A DNA stretch of 64,000 nucleotides, from the IMG/VR virus record IMGVR_UViG_3300010352_001543, one strand, 5' to 3'. A program made the position numbers and the translations under genes. Source of the DNA: a virus. Lineage: Duplodnaviria > Caudoviricetes. Under the pieces are notes generated by a model, which searched no databases, was not told where the DNA came from, and worked only from the letters and a program-made list of their open reading frames with translations. Shown here piece by piece: positions 2,452 to 29,201 of the stretch (position 1 is its first letter; every line of letters begins with the position of its first letter).

Positions 2452-2518
2452 TTTATTTTCTTTATTTTTGATATATATATTTGATTAAAAATATTATTGA
2501 AACGTCAATAATATTTTT

Positions 2519-3886
2519 ATTGTAAGTCGATTCTGTAATTTTTTGTTTTAATATATACTTTATAAGGAAAACATAATTAGTATATCAGAAAAATGGTCCA
2601 AGTAGAACAACATATTGTTAAAAAATCCAACAGCAGTGATTGGCAAGTGATTGATCACTTAGCATTACTATCTAAGAACTTGTACAACACCTGTCTATGG
2701 ACTATCAAAAATCATTTTGAAGCAACCGGAAAGTGGATGCGCTACAACGAAATGTACCGAAAGTTTTATGATGAAAAGAATCCTTCTTTCATTGCTCTAC
2801 CAGCAGCGACTGCACAACAAATTATGATGGTGATGGATAGGAACATGAAGAGCTACTTCGCCTTACTAAAAATGTATCGAAAGAACAAAAAGTCTTTAAA
2901 CGGATGCCCTAAGTTTCCAAAGTACAAAGATAGCATTAAAGGTAGAAATATAATTATTTTTACTGCTGAAAATCAAGCAAAACTACAAAAGGATGGAACT
3001 ATCACTTTTCCAAAGAAAACTGGGCTAAGACCACTAACAACTAAAATACCAGCTGGAAGCCTAAAACAAGTAAGAATAGTGCCACAATCAAGCTGCTATG
3101 TTATTGAAGTTATTTACGAAAAAGAAGTAGTACAAGCATTTCCAGAAAATGATTCATGGTTGTCTATTGATTTAGGAATCAACAACCTAATGACATGCTT
3201 TGATACTGTTTCATCTAAACCAACAATCATCACAGGCAAGCCACTTAAATCCATCAACCAATTTTACAACAAGAAACATGCTAAATTACAATCAATTCTA
3301 CAAAAACAATACCCTAAACGACATAAGTCAAAGAAATTAAACAAACTAACAATAAAACGAAACAGAAAAATTAAGGACTACCTCCATAAGAGCTCCAGGT
3401 TTGTAGTCAATTATTGCTTAGAAAGTGGTATCTCCAACATTGCTATAGGTTACAACGCTGAGTGGAAACAAAATGTTTCACTCGGCAGCCGTATCAACCA
3501 AAACTTTGTTCAAATTCCTTTTCTAACACTAATAAATCAAATAGAATATAAAGCAGCGCTGCTTGGCATTTCAGTAACAAGGAACGAAGAATCCTACACC
3601 AGTAAGTGCTCAGCAATTGATTTAGAACCAGTTGAAAAACATGACGTTTATGCCGGAGAGCGTAAAAAACGTGGTATGTTTATTAGCGCTAAAGGTACTA
3701 AAATCAATGCTGACTTAAATGGAGCCATCAATATTCTTCGAAAGGTAGCTGGAGATAAGGAACCTGTAATGACTGTTGTAAAACAGTGGGTGCAAACTCA
3801 ATCCAGTAGAGGCCAAGTCGTTTGGCCGTTTCATGTTAACATGAATAAATAGTTTTTAAAGAGCATTCTTTTTAAGCTAATACGAT
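2519..3886 (+). mobile_element. tnpB-only IS200/IS605-type element, copy 1
   Basis: Left end (TTTTATTGTAA.TCG.TTCTGTAA...) and right end (...CTAATACGAT) shared with copy 2; no transposase in window; boundaries approximate. Confidence 0.75.
2593..3852 (+). CDS. tnpB: RNA-guided endonuclease TnpB
   Basis: IDLGINNL (RuvC-I), EESYTSKCS, INADLNGAINI (RuvC-III). Confidence 0.93.
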   Translation: MVQVEQHIVKKSNSSDWQVIDHLALLSKNLYNTCLWTIKNHFEATGKWMRYNEMYRKFYDEKNPSFIALPAATAQQIMMVMDRNMKSYFALLKMYRKNKKSLNGCPKFPKYKDSIKGRNIIIFTAENQAKLQKDGTITFPKKTGLRPLTTKIPAGSLKQVRIVPQSSCYVIEVIYEKEVVQAFPENDSWLSIDLGINNLMTCFDTVSSKPTIITGKPLKSINQFYNKKHAKLQSILQKQYPKRHKSKKLNKLTIKRNRKIKDYLHKSSRFVVNYCLESGISNIAIGYNAEWKQNVSLGSRINQNFVQIPFLTLINQIEYKAALLGISVTRNEESYTSKCSAIDLEPVEKHDVYAGERKKRGMFISAKGTKINADLNGAINILRKVAGDKEPVMTVVKQWVQTQSSRGQVVWPFHVNMNK

Positions 3887-3906
3887 CAGCGTCTATCAGA
3901 GAATCA
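3700..3906 (+). ncRNA. putative omegaRNA (scaffold plus guide from 3887)
   Basis: Hairpins GGCCAA/TTGGCC and TTCATG/CATGAA conserved between copies while loops vary; 5' end is a guess. Confidence 0.5.
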
Positions 3907-4034
3907 AAATATTCACAATAGTAATCAGGAAAAACTTCATATTTTTGGAAGTAGTCGCATTCTTCAGAACATTTGGTATGGTCCGAATCATCAATCGCTA
4001 TTTCAAAATATTCTATAGCTACTAATACTTTCAT
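3831..4034 (-). CDS. small Cys-rich protein, C-terminus probably replaced by the tnpB element
   Basis: Cys spacing resembles 8661..8855; last codons lie inside the element right end. Confidence 0.5.
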   Translation of the reverse strand: MKVLVAIEYFEIAIDDSDHTKCSEECDYFQKYEVFPDYYCEYFDSLIDADRISLKRMLFKNYLFMLT

Positions 4035-10036: not shown

Positions 10037-10118
10037 AAAAAAAATAAAAAAATTTCTTAAAAATAAATTTAAGAAATTTCAAAAAGAAGGAATGAAAATT
10101 TTTGTTAAATGGTGTTTA

Positions 10119-10595
10119 CTAATTCTTCAAATTCTTTATTTGTTTAATGAATTCATTTTCGATTGCTCTTATTCTTGGCTTAATATCCGATTTTGATTTG
10201 ACTGGTAATAGTTCATATCGATTTGTATCGTTTTTGAACCAGGCTACATCTAATTTAGTAGGATTACCTTCTTGTAAATCGTCATCGAACCAGTCATCCG
10301 GATAAATATAGATTGTATGAACAGTGTCTATATATTCTGCTATTTCTTGATTAAAACGATATAATGTATTTTTATCAAACCGGGTATACGGTACTAACTC
10401 CCATCCATCATTGTATTGATTGATATTGGATTCATAATTTTTCAAAAGTTCTTTATCAACTAATTTTTTGTAAATAGGATCCAACCGTTTTTGTAATTTA
10501 AACATTGTTGTCCTGATGGCATCCGATGACATTACTGTTTCATTTTCTTCATTAAGAAAATTGCTATATGTTTTTATATGTTTTAGTGGTTGCAT
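10119..10595 (-). CDS. putative internal head protein
   Basis: N-terminus KHIKTYSNFLNEE; both promoter motifs upstream. Confidence 0.65.
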   Translation of the reverse strand: MQPLKHIKTYSNFLNEENETVMSSDAIRTTMFKLQKRLDPIYKKLVDKELLKNYESNINQYNDGWELVPYTRFDKNTLYRFNQEIAEYIDTVHTIYIYPDDWFDDDLQEGNPTKLDVAWFKNDTNRYELLPVKSKSDIKPRIRAIENEFIKQIKNLKN

Positions 10596-10628
10596 ACTTT
10601 TTTGTTAATATTTAAATTATATATTAAA

Positions 10629-10654
10629 GACGTTACAATTGAAATTTTATTGTA
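10629..10654 (-). promoter_or_regulatory. ECF-type promoter TACAAT-N16-CGTC
   Basis: Motif copy; -35 overlaps left end of tnpB copy 2. Confidence 0.72.
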
Positions 10655-11991
10655 AATCGGTTCTGTAAATTTTTGTTTTAATATATACTGTATAAGAAAA
10701 ATATAAATTAGTTATACACTATAATGGTCCAAGTAGAACAACATATAGTTAAAAAATCCAACATCAGAAAGAGTGACTGGCAAGTGATTGATCACTTAGC
10801 ATTCTTGTCTAAAAACTTGTACAATACTTGTCTATGGACCATCAAAAATCATTTTGAAGCAACCGGAAAGTGGATGCGATACAACGAAATGTATAGAAAG
10901 TTCTATGACGAGCAGAATCCTGCTTTCTTTGCTCTACCGGCAGCGACTGCTCAGCAAATTATGATGTTGATGGACAAAAACATGAAGTCTTACTTCGCCC
11001 TGCTAAAAATGTATCGAAAGAACAAAAAGTTATTGAATGGCTGCCCACAGTTTCCTAAGTACAAAGACAGTGTCAATGGAAGAAATGTTGTCATTTTTAC
11101 TTCTATTCAAGCAAGGCTACAAAAAGATGAGACAATTAATTTTCCAAAGAAAACTGACCTAAGACCACTAAAGACTAAAATTCCAGCTGGAAGCCTGAAA
11201 CAAGTAAGGATCATTCCTCAATCGTCCTGCTATATCATTGAAGTTGTCTATGAAAAAGAAGTAGTGCAAGCATTTCCTCCTAATGATTCCTGGTTGTCTA
11301 TCGACCTTGGAGTCAATAACTTAATGACCTGTTTTGATACTGTTTCCAACAAACCAACAATAGTAAACGGTAAACCACTCAAATCCATCAACCAATTCTA
11401 CAACAAGAAACATGCTAAACTACAATCACAACTACAAAAACAGTATCCAAAACGACATAAGTCAAAAAAACTAAATAAATTAACAACAAAAAGAAATCGT
11501 AAAATTAAAGACTACCTCCACAAGAGTTCCAGGTTTGTAGTCAATTATTGCTTGGAAGCAGGCATCTCCAACATTGTAGTAGGTTACAACGCTGAGTGGA
11601 AACAAAACGTTCAGCTCGGCAGTCGCACCAATCAAAACTTTGTTCAAATACCTTTTCTAACACTAATAAATCAAATAGAATACAAAGCAGCACTGCTTGG
11701 CATAACTGTTGTAAGGAACGAAGAATCCTACACCAGTAAGTGCTCAGCGATGGACCTTGAACCAGTTAAAAAACATGACATATTGCGGTAAGCGCATAAA
11801 GCGCGGCATGTTTATAACTGCTAACGGAACTAAGATCAATGCTGATTTAAATGGAGCAATAAATATTCTTCGAAAGGTAGCCGGAGATAAGGAACAAATT
11901 ATTAAATTTGTTCAAACTCAATCTAGTAGAGGTCAAGTCGTTTGGCCGTTTCATGTATGCATGAATAAATAGTTTTTAAAACTAATACGAT
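10649..11991 (+). mobile_element. tnpB-only element, copy 2
   Basis: Ends homologous to copy 1; boundaries approximate. Confidence 0.75.
10724..11972 (+). pseudogene. tnpB: TnpB with 2-nt deletion near 11780; RuvC-III out of frame
   Basis: Close paralog of 2593..3852; KHD|YCGKRIKRG is split across two ORFs. Confidence 0.85.
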
Positions 11992-12137
11992 ACTGATTTT
12001 CTCAACGAAGAAAATGAGGTAGTGATGGCTTCCGATACCATCCAAGCAACGATAAATTACAAAAACAATTAGATCCAATCTACAAAAAATTAGTTGATAA
12101 AGGACTTATAAAAAGTTATAAATTCAGAATCGATCAA
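11989..12137 (+). pseudogene. inverted, diverged fragment of gene 10119..10595
   Basis: Translates TDFLNEENEVVMASDTIQAT-/KLQKQLDPIYKKLVDKGLIKSY versus SNFLNEENETVMSSDAIRTTMFKLQKRLDPIYKKLVDKELLKNY. Confidence 0.88.
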
Positions 12138-12168
12138 TCGTATGTTTTAATCGACTCATAATTTTTAC

Positions 12169-12672
12169 CTATAATTTCCAGCCATCTTTTATGGCTTCTT
12201 GTTTTGTTCGATATCCTGAAATTTTAGAAACATAAGTTAAGTCCAATTCAAAATAAGCATAGAAATAAATATCATCACCATCCGGATAAATTCGACTTAA
12301 TATTATAGGAGCACCTTCTGCCACATTGATAGTATATCCTCCTATATTATCATTAATTTTTCCACCAAAATTAAATTGGTTGAATTCAGTAACATAAGGA
12401 GTTCGAGGACCTCTGTGATTATCAAAACTTTTAGAATCTTTTGCTAAAATCAATACTTTTTCATAGTTAGATTCAAGTGAAATGGAAACATCTTTTTTAG
12501 TATTTCCTCTTGGTATCATGTATAAACCTGGATGGTGATGAGTTGATATAGTGTGTTTGAAAATCTGATAAATATCCCCTTGATAAACAACTAACATCCC
12601 TTCTTTGAAGCTGTCCAAAATATTATGTTCGTTCCGTTCAAACAATTTAATACGCTCACTGAATTTTTTCAT
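12169..12672 (-). CDS. hypothetical protein, possible internal head protein
   Basis: MKKFSERIKLFE N-terminus. Confidence 0.65.
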   Translation of the reverse strand: MKKFSERIKLFERNEHNILDSFKEGMLVVYQGDIYQIFKHTISTHHHPGLYMIPRGNTKKDVSISLESNYEKVLILAKDSKSFDNHRGPRTPYVTEFNQFNFGGKINDNIGGYTINVAEGAPIILSRIYPDGDDIYFYAYFELDLTYVSKISGYRTKQEAIKDGWKL

Positions 12673-24895: not shown

Positions 24896-26248
24896 CTATT
24901 TTTCGATAAAGACAGTTCGTTTCTTATCATATTCTCTTTCGGGCGCTACTACGGAGCCACAATTATAGCATTTATATAGATGAATATTTTCATCTAAGCT
25001 TATAATTTTTCCATTTGACCACACAGGAGTTAAGTAAATATCTTTATTCTTTATATATTTCAAAGACAACCAATCTATATTTGTTTCTTCTTTCAAAACA
25101 TTTCCTTCTAATATTCTTTTAATATTGATTTTTACCTCTTCTTGATTACTATTCCATTCGTAATCCCAAATAAAATATAAATCTATATTTTTATTTAATG
25201 CTTCCATTTTCTTGTCTAAATGATAAGTAGACTCTTTAAATTTATCAGAATGCCAATATGAACCATTGAATTCAAATCCTATGTTTTTAGAAGGAATTAA
25301 AATATCTATTTCTTGATATTTTAATATTGTTCTATCATTAGTTTTGACCTCATAACCTAAGGATTCGATATAAGTAGAAATTTCTACTTCGGTTTTATTA
25401 ATCAAATGTTTTCCATTGTTCAACGAACATGAAACACCATATCTTTCTATATGAGTTTGTCTTGATTTATTTCTTATTTCTTCCGAACTCCATGAACCAT
25501 ATCTTTCGAGTCTGGTCATTAGTGTTTTTTGTTTACATATATCAGATTGTGATGGATACGCAACACCATATTTTTTTAGATTTGTATCTATTGATTTGTT
25601 TTTTGATTCTTCTAACTGCATTGGATTTTCTACACCATGTTTCTGCATATGTGTTTTCTTGCGTCTATTTATTATTTCATGATTTTGCATTGGATTTTCT
25701 ACACCGTATCTATCGAACATAGTATGTTTTATTATACCTTTAATTTCTTCTGATAGATAAGGAGACTCAACACCATAATTTTTAAAACAAGTTTCTTTAA
25801 ATTTCTTTCTTATTTTTTTAGATTGCATAGGTGATCTTACACCATTATTTTTAAGGCATGTTTCTTGAATCTTATTTTTTATTATATCTAACTTACTTGG
25901 ATTTTCAACACCATATCTTTCTATACATGTTCTTTTCCTTTTTTCTTTTGCTTTTTTCTTTTTACATTTATCACAATCTGATTTATAAACATTATTTTTT
26001 ATCAGATTTAGATTACCCAATAACACTGGTTCTTCTTTACAGGTAGAACAATATAAAATTTCTAATTTTTCATTAAATATATGCCAAAGTCGTTGAATTT
26101 CATTATCATCATAATAATCATCTAAAAATTTAGTCAGCTCTTTTATTTTATCTATTAACTCTGGATTTTTACTTACTGCACTTCTAAATTTATAGATATA
26201 TAATCTAAAATTTTTTGAATCTTCTTTAATTTTTTGTAGTTGTTCCAT
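24896..26248 (-). CDS. putative homing endonuclease with YGVENP repeats and Vsr-like domain
   Basis: About 8 (K/R)YGV.NP-type repeats; EIDI.IP...GFEFNGSYWH. Confidence 0.82.
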   Translation of the reverse strand: MEQLQKIKEDSKNFRLYIYKFRSAVSKNPELIDKIKELTKFLDDYYDDNEIQRLWHIFNEKLEILYCSTCKEEPVLLGNLNLIKNNVYKSDCDKCKKKKAKEKRKRTCIERYGVENPSKLDIIKNKIQETCLKNNGVRSPMQSKKIRKKFKETCFKNYGVESPYLSEEIKGIIKHTMFDRYGVENPMQNHEIINRRKKTHMQKHGVENPMQLEESKNKSIDTNLKKYGVAYPSQSDICKQKTLMTRLERYGSWSSEEIRNKSRQTHIERYGVSCSLNNGKHLINKTEVEISTYIESLGYEVKTNDRTILKYQEIDILIPSKNIGFEFNGSYWHSDKFKESTYHLDKKMEALNKNIDLYFIWDYEWNSNQEEVKINIKRILEGNVLKEETNIDWLSLKYIKNKDIYLTPVWSNGKIISLDENIHLYKCYNCGSVVAPEREYDKKRTVFIEK

Positions 26249-27110: not shown

Positions 27111-29201
27111 TTATTTGTAAATGTTCTTTGGATTTATTGTTTTCTTTGGTTCTTTGCTTTCAAATTTGATTGTTTTTGGATTAATTGTTTCTTTTGGTTT
27201 ATTACTTTCAAATTTGATTGTTTCAGGATCGATGTCATCTTTCGGAGGAGTTTCCACTAATTCTACCGGTTCAATTGTATCTTTTGGTGAAGTTTCAGTC
27301 AACTCTACTGGATCAATTATTTCCTTGAATGGTGTGTTATCAAATTGTAATTGATCAATCGTATCTTTGACAGGTGTCACATCAAATTGTAATTGGTCAA
27401 TTGTATCTTTTGGAGGAGTTTCATTTAGTTGAATTGGATCAATCGTATCTTTGACAGGTGTCACATCAAATTGTAATTGGTCAATTGTATCTTTTGGAGG
27501 AGTCTCATCCAATTTAATAGGGTCAATTGTATCTTTAAATGGTGTTTCATCGAACTGAATTGGATCAATCGTATCTTTAACAGGTGTTATATCGAATTGT
27601 AGTTGATCAATTGTTTTCTTCGGTTCAGCCGATTCGAATTGGACCGGATCAATTGTTTTCTTTGGTTCGGTCCCATGTAAATTTACTTCAGTTATTTTTT
27701 TGTTTGGTTCGGTCATAGTCAATATCACCGGATCAATTGTTTCTTTAACCGGAGTAATTAGGAAATCCATTTTACCTAAAACTTTGTTGTCTATGTTTTC
27801 GATTATGCTTGTTGAGTAAGCATTCTTCCAGTTTTGATCAGCAGCTGTTTTTTCAACAACTTGTGATGTATCATAAATACTTTTCTGATCAATAGTTTTA
27901 ACCGGTCCGGTCGTATCATTTCCACCATACTGTAGAAAGCTATTTGCTGGATCAGCAAGTCTTGCTTCTTTCTCAGCTTTAGTGGCTGCCCATTCTTCAA
28001 ATGCCTCACCTTTTATAGTACTTGAAATATCTTTAAATTTATTGCTGTCATTATTGTAATCATGTAATGCTCTTTGTTCATTGATATAAGTATCTATATC
28101 TGTTTGGATGTCCTTACCAAGCGGACTCAACAGTACCGATAAATTTTTTCTGAATTCATTGTAGTTTTTTAGACCATCTTGAAGGGCACGCCCAGACTGA
28201 GGAATACCAAATTTTTCTGTACTGGTTAGTATCCATTCAAAAAATCCATATTGTTGAAATTCATCTACTTCTTCCACTTCAACCGAAAATGATTGAGCTA
28301 CCGGTTCACTTTGGGAACTATTACTTACCTTTCCAAAACCCTCGAATGATTCTTCAAAATCAAAAATACATTTAGGAAAAGTGAACTTGTAATATGTTAT
28401 GTAATCGTTTAAACTTTGAAGTTTGTACTGTGATTTTTCTTTTTCAACTGGTTGAGGGGCAATCACTGGTATTTCACTTGTCATAGGAGTAGAAACAGTT
28501 GCTGGTGAATTTTGTCCTGCTTTATAAATATCAGCGCTTGAGTGTTCATTAGCGAGCACTGATTGTACTACAGAAGAATTGGCCGATAAACTTGGTGGAG
28601 TGGTTGTTCCTATTATTTGTCTAATAGTATATAAATCTCTGAATTCAGCTACCGTTATTTCCATCTCAAATCTTCGTTTATCTATAGGTAAATTATATTT
28701 TAAGTATTTCCAGTCATAAACAGCTACTCGATACAAGTTAATCCAGAATGACATAATATTATCAAGTGACTCAAGAGTCTCAAATTTAATCTTATGATTT
28801 TTCAAACGATAAGGAACTCCTGATTCAGGAAACTTGAAAATTTCTTGAAGCCCGGAAACTGACTGGAAAAAATGAGGTCGATTAGTTTGGATATAATCAG
28901 TCATATTTCTAAATTCAGTTAGTGCTTCTGATTGCTTATAAAGATTTCTTCTTCTAAGAAAATTAATTGCTGATTCTATTTGATCAGTTCCTAATAAAAG
29001 TCCAAGTGGAATAGTTTCTGTTCCAGGGTAAGGAACTCCTTGCTCATTTCTAAGATGATCAGAAAATAGATTAAAATGTACGGAAAAACAATAGAATGTC
29101 GGTTCATCCAACATGTCGTTATGTGATTCTGAAAATTTAACCAAGTCCGAATTTGAAACACTTAGAAAATTTCTTATCTTACTATTAGGAGATTTAATCA
29201 T
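27111..29201 (-). CDS. probable baseplate/tail-tube-initiator-like protein with C-terminal repeats
   Basis: Between gp5-like and gp27-like genes; function inferred. Confidence 0.55.
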   Translation of the reverse strand: MIKSPNSKIRNFLSVSNSDLVKFSESHNDMLDEPTFYCFSVHFNLFSDHLRNEQGVPYPGTETIPLGLLLGTDQIESAINFLRRRNLYKQSEALTEFRNMTDYIQTNRPHFFQSVSGLQEIFKFPESGVPYRLKNHKIKFETLESLDNIMSFWINLYRVAVYDWKYLKYNLPIDKRRFEMEITVAEFRDLYTIRQIIGTTTPPSLSANSSVVQSVLANEHSSADIYKAGQNSPATVSTPMTSEIPVIAPQPVEKEKSQYKLQSLNDYITYYKFTFPKCIFDFEESFEGFGKVSNSSQSEPVAQSFSVEVEEVDEFQQYGFFEWILTSTEKFGIPQSGRALQDGLKNYNEFRKNLSVLLSPLGKDIQTDIDTYINEQRALHDYNNDSNKFKDISSTIKGEAFEEWAATKAEKEARLADPANSFLQYGGNDTTGPVKTIDQKSIYDTSQVVEKTAADQNWKNAYSTSIIENIDNKVLGKMDFLITPVKETIDPVILTMTEPNKKITEVNLHGTEPKKTIDPVQFESAEPKKTIDQLQFDITPVKDTIDPIQFDETPFKDTIDPIKLDETPPKDTIDQLQFDVTPVKDTIDPIQLNETPPKDTIDQLQFDVTPVKDTIDQLQFDNTPFKEIIDPVELTETSPKDTIEPVELVETPPKDDIDPETIKFESNKPKETINPKTIKFESKEPKKTINPKNIYK
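27125..27760 (-). repeat. 39-nt (13-aa) tandem repeat PxKDTIDxxQFDxT
   Basis: About 16 degenerate units visible in protein and DNA. Confidence 0.9.

Follow-up and report, generated by a model that had tools for sequence, protein, structure and literature searches.

Is the gene fragment at the guide position of a phage-borne tnpB element a programmed guide against related phages, or is it the relic of a rearrangement? The question is raised by one of the two tnpB copies in the 64,000-nt stretch of phage DNA analysed here (the window), which is followed on its right by an inverted piece of the gene on its left. The first-pass annotation of the window had read this piece as a functional allele of the neighbouring gene and suggested RNA-guided intronless homing or phage-phage exclusion, in which the resident allele is immune while the allele of a relative is cut; a passive scar of insertion and rearrangement was its own alternative. 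Homing of transposons into co-infecting phages is treated as theoretical in a 2026 review (PMC13565253). The phage has a genome of about 280 kb, was found only in activated-sludge and digester metagenomes and carries at least three related TnpB elements.

Gene A and its promoter

The neighbouring gene, here called A (10119..10595, minus strand), is an intact reading frame of 158 aa in the ORF list. A HMMER library search placed its product in a family of about 50 phage-metagenome proteins with unassigned function; no Pfam family matched and the PHROG match was weak only. In a word-based protein search A itself was the sole match, and the IMG/VR scan returned no match to gene A, to the exact guide or to the degenerate pattern DPIYKKLVDK. 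Tandem paralogues of A were not found in distant relatives.

The 5′ UTR of A and a promoter-like motif (ACAATAAAA, about 12 nt, ACGTC) occupy 10596..10655 on the minus strand, and the plus-strand TTGTAA at 10650-10655 adjoins the left end of tnpB copy 2. The first 24 kb of the window consist of small minus-strand genes with this motif repeated between them. Ten minus-strand copies, all intergenic, were located there upstream of ten minus-strand genes (1605, 2523, 8660, 10035, 10653, 13481, 15177, 18613, 20180 and 23689). The motif takes the form of ACAATAAAA, a gap of 9-15 nt and (A/T)CGT(C/T), similar to an ECF-type -35/-10 pair; a sigma-70 r2/r4 protein is encoded by a sister phage of the one studied here (contig L012, 2526..2990).

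Further repeats were observed in the window. About ten 42-nt tandem units (27226-27665) and a 69-nt periodic repeat (25433-25956, six copies starting AACACCATA) are situated between minus-strand genes or on their coding strand. A terminator-like hairpin cassette (AAATTTCTTAAAAATAAATT.AAGAAATTT) recurs with 93% identity at 1608-1650 and 10040-10082, downstream of two unrelated genes, and contigs of the sister phage break at this repeat.

Anatomy of the tnpB copies

Copy 1 (2526..3886, plus strand) starts after TTGTAA (2520-2525) at a promoter motif, and its right end lies at 3886. The reading frame (2593..3852) is intact and encodes 419 aa with the Pfam domains PF01385 (OrfB_IS605, 1e-22) and PF07282 (TNB, 2e-10). 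The motifs SIDLG, EESYTS and NADLNGA of the protein align to Cas12f RuvC structures; a phmmer search against the PDB gave no match. The guide of copy 1 is CAGCGTCTATCAGAGA. Copy 3 belongs to the same phage and lies outside the window (L025:4001-5263). Its reading frame is intact (420 aa) and shares at least 90% identity with copy 2. The element was inserted cleanly between genes, 3′ of TTTTATTGTAA at a degenerate promoter box and in antisense to its neighbours; ATTTATAATTCAAATG is its guide, and no gene piece stands at its flank.

Copy 2 (10656..11991, plus strand; ORF 10724..11972) is degenerate in alignments to copies 1 and 3. Its left end lies at 10656, with an inner TGTAA at 10664-10668, and its right end reads CTAATACGAT up to 11991. 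A 2-nt deletion at 11780/11781, between RuvC-II and RuvC-III, makes it a pseudogene, and a further 12 nt are deleted near 11905. The omegaRNA scaffold (about 11886-11991) keeps its main stems and the base of the last hairpin; in the folds this terminal hairpin, present in six family members, is about 15 nt shorter in copy 2 and has lost its inner part. Across seven family members, 10 of the 27 consensus pairs of the scaffold carry compensatory changes. No Rfam family matched the scaffold, and a scan with a conserved scaffold 22-mer found one contig only (L005). The proteins of copies 1 and 2 are 89% identical, with a dN/dS of about 0.10 and a dS of about 0.75. Given the dN/dS of 0.10 against copy 1, the decay of copy 2 is recent, and the two copies split long ago as working genes.

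The elements resemble TnpB of the IS200/IS605 type (ISDra2; Karvelis 2021, PMC8612924; restorative homing, bioRxiv 10.1101/2023.03.14.532601) in their OrfB_IS605 and TNB domains, in the RuvC D-E-D residues of copies 1 and 3, in a scaffold that overlaps the 3′ end of the gene, stops at an apparently sharp right end and is followed by flank-derived sequence, and in a short conserved motif beside the left end. They differ from it in several respects: no TnpA adjoins any of the three copies or turned up in the window, the whole subfamily lacks the zinc-finger cysteines, and the elements reside in a lytic-type jumbo phage, antisense and at promoter edges. Copy 2 departs further, being broken and flanked by an inverted gene remnant. 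In the phage collection nothing similar was found except a distant tnpB in Bacillus phage G.

Read depth over tnpB was 2-5 times that of the flanks, and additional copies therefore probably exist. One DNA run shows a loose end at 10667, which was considered as the left-end boundary and rejected; it belongs to a diverged further tnpB copy. All 13 differences between the window and a second assembly of the locus (L001, 99.9% identical) are packed into 70 nt of copy 2 (11209-11278), and both haplotypes occur in one DNA run at similar depth. Such a cluster suggests gene conversion between tnpB copies or a chimeric assembly. At the right end of copy 1, a 67-aa gene (3831-4034, minus strand) enters the element and takes its last 17 codons from transposon sequence; its counterpart in the sister phage is a 91-aa homologue accompanied by a 277-aa gene that is missing here.

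The inverted flank of copy 2

The sequence shared by copies 1 and 2 stops at 3886 and 11991, and all three copies diverge after ATACGAT. The guide start at 11992 proposed in the first-pass annotation agrees with this divergence, although a hexamer common to several elements (see below) may shift the boundary by 6 nt. The following sequence (11992..12136, plus strand) corresponds, in reverse complement, to nt 31-179 (codons 11-60) of gene A, with 77.6% identity over 147 nt (E 1e-29), in agreement with the inverted homologue of some 145 nt described earlier. L001 has the same arrangement.

The evidence supports the view that this piece derives from a diverged allele of the neighbouring gene, which is called A′ here. 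Its first 16 nt form the present guide, ACTGATTTTCTCAACG, which differs from the resident AGCAATTTTCTTAATG at positions 2, 3, 4, 12 and 15, exactly as claimed; three of these five mismatches fall in the seed. The remnant is 84.8% identical to the allele of the sister phage, and synonymous differences from that allele prevail in codons 11-30 (5 against 2 non-synonymous) but not in codons 33-60 (2 against 6). Moreover, 4 nt are lacking between 12052 and 12053, and the remnant is therefore frameshifted.

The beginning of A′ is found on the far side of the piece. Its first 19 nt (12141..12159, minus strand; ATG at 12159-12157) occupy their native place and orientation, 9 nt behind the stop of a 167-aa gene (12169..12672, minus strand). 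A contiguous alignment with 92.5% identity (L012 7484-8017, window 12675-12143) links the 167-aa gene to the first 17-19 nt of A, which indicates that the old allele is still anchored at its native site. Between this start and the inverted piece stands ATCG (12137..12140, minus strand), the reverse complement of CGAT, the last four bases of the right end. ATCGTAT (12137-12143) is the exact inverted partner of ATACGAT (11985-11991), and the two abut both ends of the piece. The inverted repeat extends to 14-16 nt (11976-11991 against 12137-12150; TTAAAAC(TA)ATACGAT). Random placement gave p = 3.5e-4 for the gapped repeat and p = 3.4e-4 for the abutting exact 7-mer. Read along the minus strand from 12159 to 11960, the locus is composed without any filler of A′ nt 1-19, CGAT, A′ nt 179 to 31 in antisense and the reverse complement of the right end. 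The native codons 4-7 of A′ (TTAAAACATA) resemble the right-end terminus. A likeness between TCGATTCTG, which adjoins the left end, and the far end of the remnant was attributed to chance (p = 0.03 for copy 1, 0.31 for copy 2).

In metatranscriptomes from three activated-sludge runs, contigs span parts of A, copy 2 as far as 11970 and the 167-aa gene but leave 11970-12285 uncovered; since such contigs can show neither RNA ends nor absence, no inference was drawn from this coverage.

The A locus in the sister phage

On contig L012, which represents a sister phage with 85-92% nucleotide identity, exhaustive searching with HMMER recovered a protein of 71 aa that matches the start of A with 81% identity. 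Its gene order is a 169-aa gene (orthologous to the 167-aa gene), a 10-nt spacer, a single A gene and a terminator; the locus has neither tnpB nor the promoter motif upstream of A. Resident A and this single gene share 88% nucleotide identity. The 5′ end of A was considered as a possible co-conversion tract, but its identity (45/60) lies inside the spread of other genes and the idea was rejected.

Between the intact L012 allele and the present guide, 15 of 16 positions agree. A relative thus does contain an intact allele of the kind that the first-pass annotation had proposed to look for, but the sequence 5′ of the match is AAACATAC (ACATAC) and not TGTAA. On a second contig of the sister phage (L013) copy 1 is missing as well; the genes at that locus are different (91 aa and 277 aa), so no clean empty site is available for copy 1. 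All other contigs that bear A belong to the same phage (99.9-100% identity) and therefore provide no empty site.

At L012:8214-8216 an in-frame TGA stands at codon 72 of A, where the window has CGG (Arg), and beyond it the frame is open to its usual end; a nonsense mutation or recoding could account for this. A distant homologue (L024) can be read only with TGA as tryptophan.

Candidate TAM and right-end boundary

In copies 1-3 the sequence beside the left end is TTTTATTGTAA, with TTGTAA abutting the element. This context is the -35-like box of the promoter motif on the opposite strand, and all three copies lie antisense to their neighbours. In two relatives (L015 and L016) the spacing between TGTAA and the conserved left-end core is identical. 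On the basis of these five left-end flanks, TGTAA or TTGTAA is the best TAM candidate, yet TGTAA could be part of the left end instead.

As they stand, the flanks of copy 2 do not rebuild an empty site, as had been noted, but they do so once the inversion is undone. TTGTAA then joins TGATCGATTC, and on the gene strand ATCGATCA joins TTACAAT, close to the ATCAATCAATACAAT of native A. In resident A and in L012, CATTGTAT stands before the homologous site.

A hexamer A-Y-T-N-A-T directly follows ATACGAT in four of six elements (copies 2 and 3, L017 and L018; p 4.5e-4) and lies within homologous coding sequence in two of them. Either the element extends over these six bases, or it prefers targets with this sequence on their 3′ side. 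The present junction of copy 2 fits this pattern and the reconstructed earlier junction does not. Since the hexamer is common to four of six elements, the scaffold may end at 11997, 6 nt further on. The guide would then match L012 at 20 of 20 positions, and the resident allele would differ from it at two synonymous sites only.

Discussion

The locus of copy 2 has a real and well-resolved structure, and this structure is most likely a scar. We estimate a probability of about 0.58 that the 145-nt flank is a relic and the present guide an accident of an inversion in a decaying element. This reading draws on the empty state of the locus in L012, the start of A′ in its native place, the inverted repeat at the borders of the piece, the decay of both element and remnant, and the ACATAC context of the sister allele. 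The alternative that the first-pass annotation itself had named, a scar of insertion plus rearrangement, is thereby favoured.

In the sequence of events that we infer, the right end of copy 2 would first have abutted the antisense strand of A′ nt 1-179, with a complete, promoter-driven copy of A on the left-end side. A microhomology-mediated inversion by two template switches would then have flipped A′ nt 31-179 and deleted nt 20-30, presumably by way of two similar sequences, TTAAAAC(TA)ATA of the right end and TTAAAACATA of A′ codons 4-7. The terminus of the right end (CGAT) would have been left duplicated, in inverted form, so that it flanks the flipped piece at both ends. Through such an inversion codon 11 of A′ would have come to lie directly after the right end, and the remnant and copy 2, with its frameshift and trimmed hairpin, would have decayed afterwards. 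The present guide would be without function. Microhomology or template-switch inversions and rearrangements next to insertion sequences share the features seen here, namely look-alikes at both junctions, a small deletion, an inverted duplication of a few bases and one breakpoint at the end of an insertion sequence. Copy 2 is unlike other template-switch inversions in that the piece landed where a TnpB guide is read and mimics a programmed guide.

Several points weigh against the scar. The TAM on which it partly depends was deduced from left-end flanks and TGTAA could belong to the element; the A-Y-T-N-A-T pattern fits the present junction (p ~5e-4); the intact TnpB of copy 3 could load the RNA of copy 2, whose scaffold stems and last-hairpin base are kept; and a comparable diverged flank duplicate occurs in an orderly form in a relative, L018.

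This relative bears on a second, rather unlikely explanation, in which copy 2 is a decayed homing cassette that patched the gene it entered. A unit of tnpB, an outward promoter and its own A nt 1-179 would have been inserted 3′ of TTGTAT in native A; the patch would have restored A, the displaced native piece would have been kept as guide and homology arm, and inversion and decay would have come later. The duplicated stretch does end exactly at the CATTGTAT of native A on the tnpB-sense strand, and the promoter and UTR upstream of A and of the neighbour of copy 1 have no counterpart in the sister phage. Copies 1 and 2, with their old split (dS about 0.75), both sit at a promoter-edge junction, and the sister phage lacks both. 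The same structure would, however, arise from an earlier partial duplication joined at the shared TACAAT and an ordinary promoter-edge insertion, and the divergence from L012 at the 5′ end of A is not clearly raised compared with other genes. Copy 3, too, is a plain intergenic insertion at a promoter edge that has brought no gene piece with it.

The layout expected of such a cassette, a displaced piece that follows the right end directly and is co-linear with a recoded working copy beside the left end, is present in L018. There, a metagenome scan found the last ~150 nt of a 465-aa PolB-like gene (L018:2315-2466) repeated directly after the right end of a tnpB (2501..3742) of the same TnpB family, at L018:3779-3930, in direct orientation, in frame and with 81.6% identity. 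The would-be guide and the working copy disagree at 5 of 16 positions. The target context in L018 is TAAAT and not TGTAA, and the relatives of the PolB piece are at most 52% identical, so that neither an empty site at the nucleotide level nor a TAM can be obtained from that side. At copy 2 the piece is inverted as the sequence stands, and the expected layout appears only with the inversion undone; the layout that an extended element would have produced there is the mirror image of L018. An origin of copy 2 as a homing cassette is possible. As a tentative extension, of which we are more doubtful than convinced, the TnpB subfamily may comprise RNA-guided homing cassettes among jumbo phages, each with an outward promoter and a recoded gene piece; copy 2 would have entered A at TTGTAT and been scrambled later, and L018 would be an intact example.

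The reading proposed by the first-pass annotation, in which the omegaRNA of copy 2 works in trans with the intact TnpB of copy 3 or copy 1 and cuts the A gene of co-infecting relatives, for homing or exclusion, while seed mismatches let the resident allele escape, is improbable. Part of its case holds: an intact target allele occurs in a relative, matching at 15/16 positions or at 20/20 if the guide begins at 11998, and the resident allele is mismatched at 5/16 positions, of which three fall in the seed. An intact TnpB is available in copy 3, which shares at least 90% identity with copy 2; compensatory changes preserve the scaffold stems; and over its first 20 codons the remnant departs from L012 chiefly by synonymous changes. 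Against it, no TGTAA-like motif precedes the L012 target and the junction bears the footprint of an inversion. With the candidate TAM absent, the gene of copy 2 itself dead and its terminal hairpin trimmed, an active nuclease for this target appears to be lacking. Homing would also call for co-linear homology on both sides; on the right side the arm beyond the guide is frameshifted and inverted with respect to the target gene and is therefore unusable for copying the element in. The intronless homing endonucleases SegF, SegB and Mob of T4 (PMC13565253) offer a parallel, in that a nuclease gene lies beside a gene whose allele differs between related phages and the resident allele differs at the would-be target. 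Recognition at our locus would instead be by RNA, the would-be target lacks the candidate TAM, and the right side of copy 2 lacks co-linear homology. A segment that flips between repeats to offer two alternative omegaRNA guides is very improbable: inverted repeats do bracket the piece exactly at the right-end boundary, but they are short and gapped, 11 nt of A′ are gone at one junction, no invertase gene was seen nearby, and all assemblies and DNA contigs (contigs, not raw reads) hold a single orientation.

If the inversion scar is the correct reading, a TnpB guide that matches a gene of a rival phage can arise accidentally, through a small inversion at the end of a transposon. Because such accidental matches are possible, the TAM and the anatomy of the element need to be checked before a guide-target match is read as a weapon or a gene drive. 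The finding at copy 2 itself holds less interest than the leads at the level of the family, namely promoter-edge targeting and the L018 cassette. In L018, within a DNA-polymerase gene, the layout is the one expected of an RNA-guided homing cassette, and the wider question can be tested with defined sequences.
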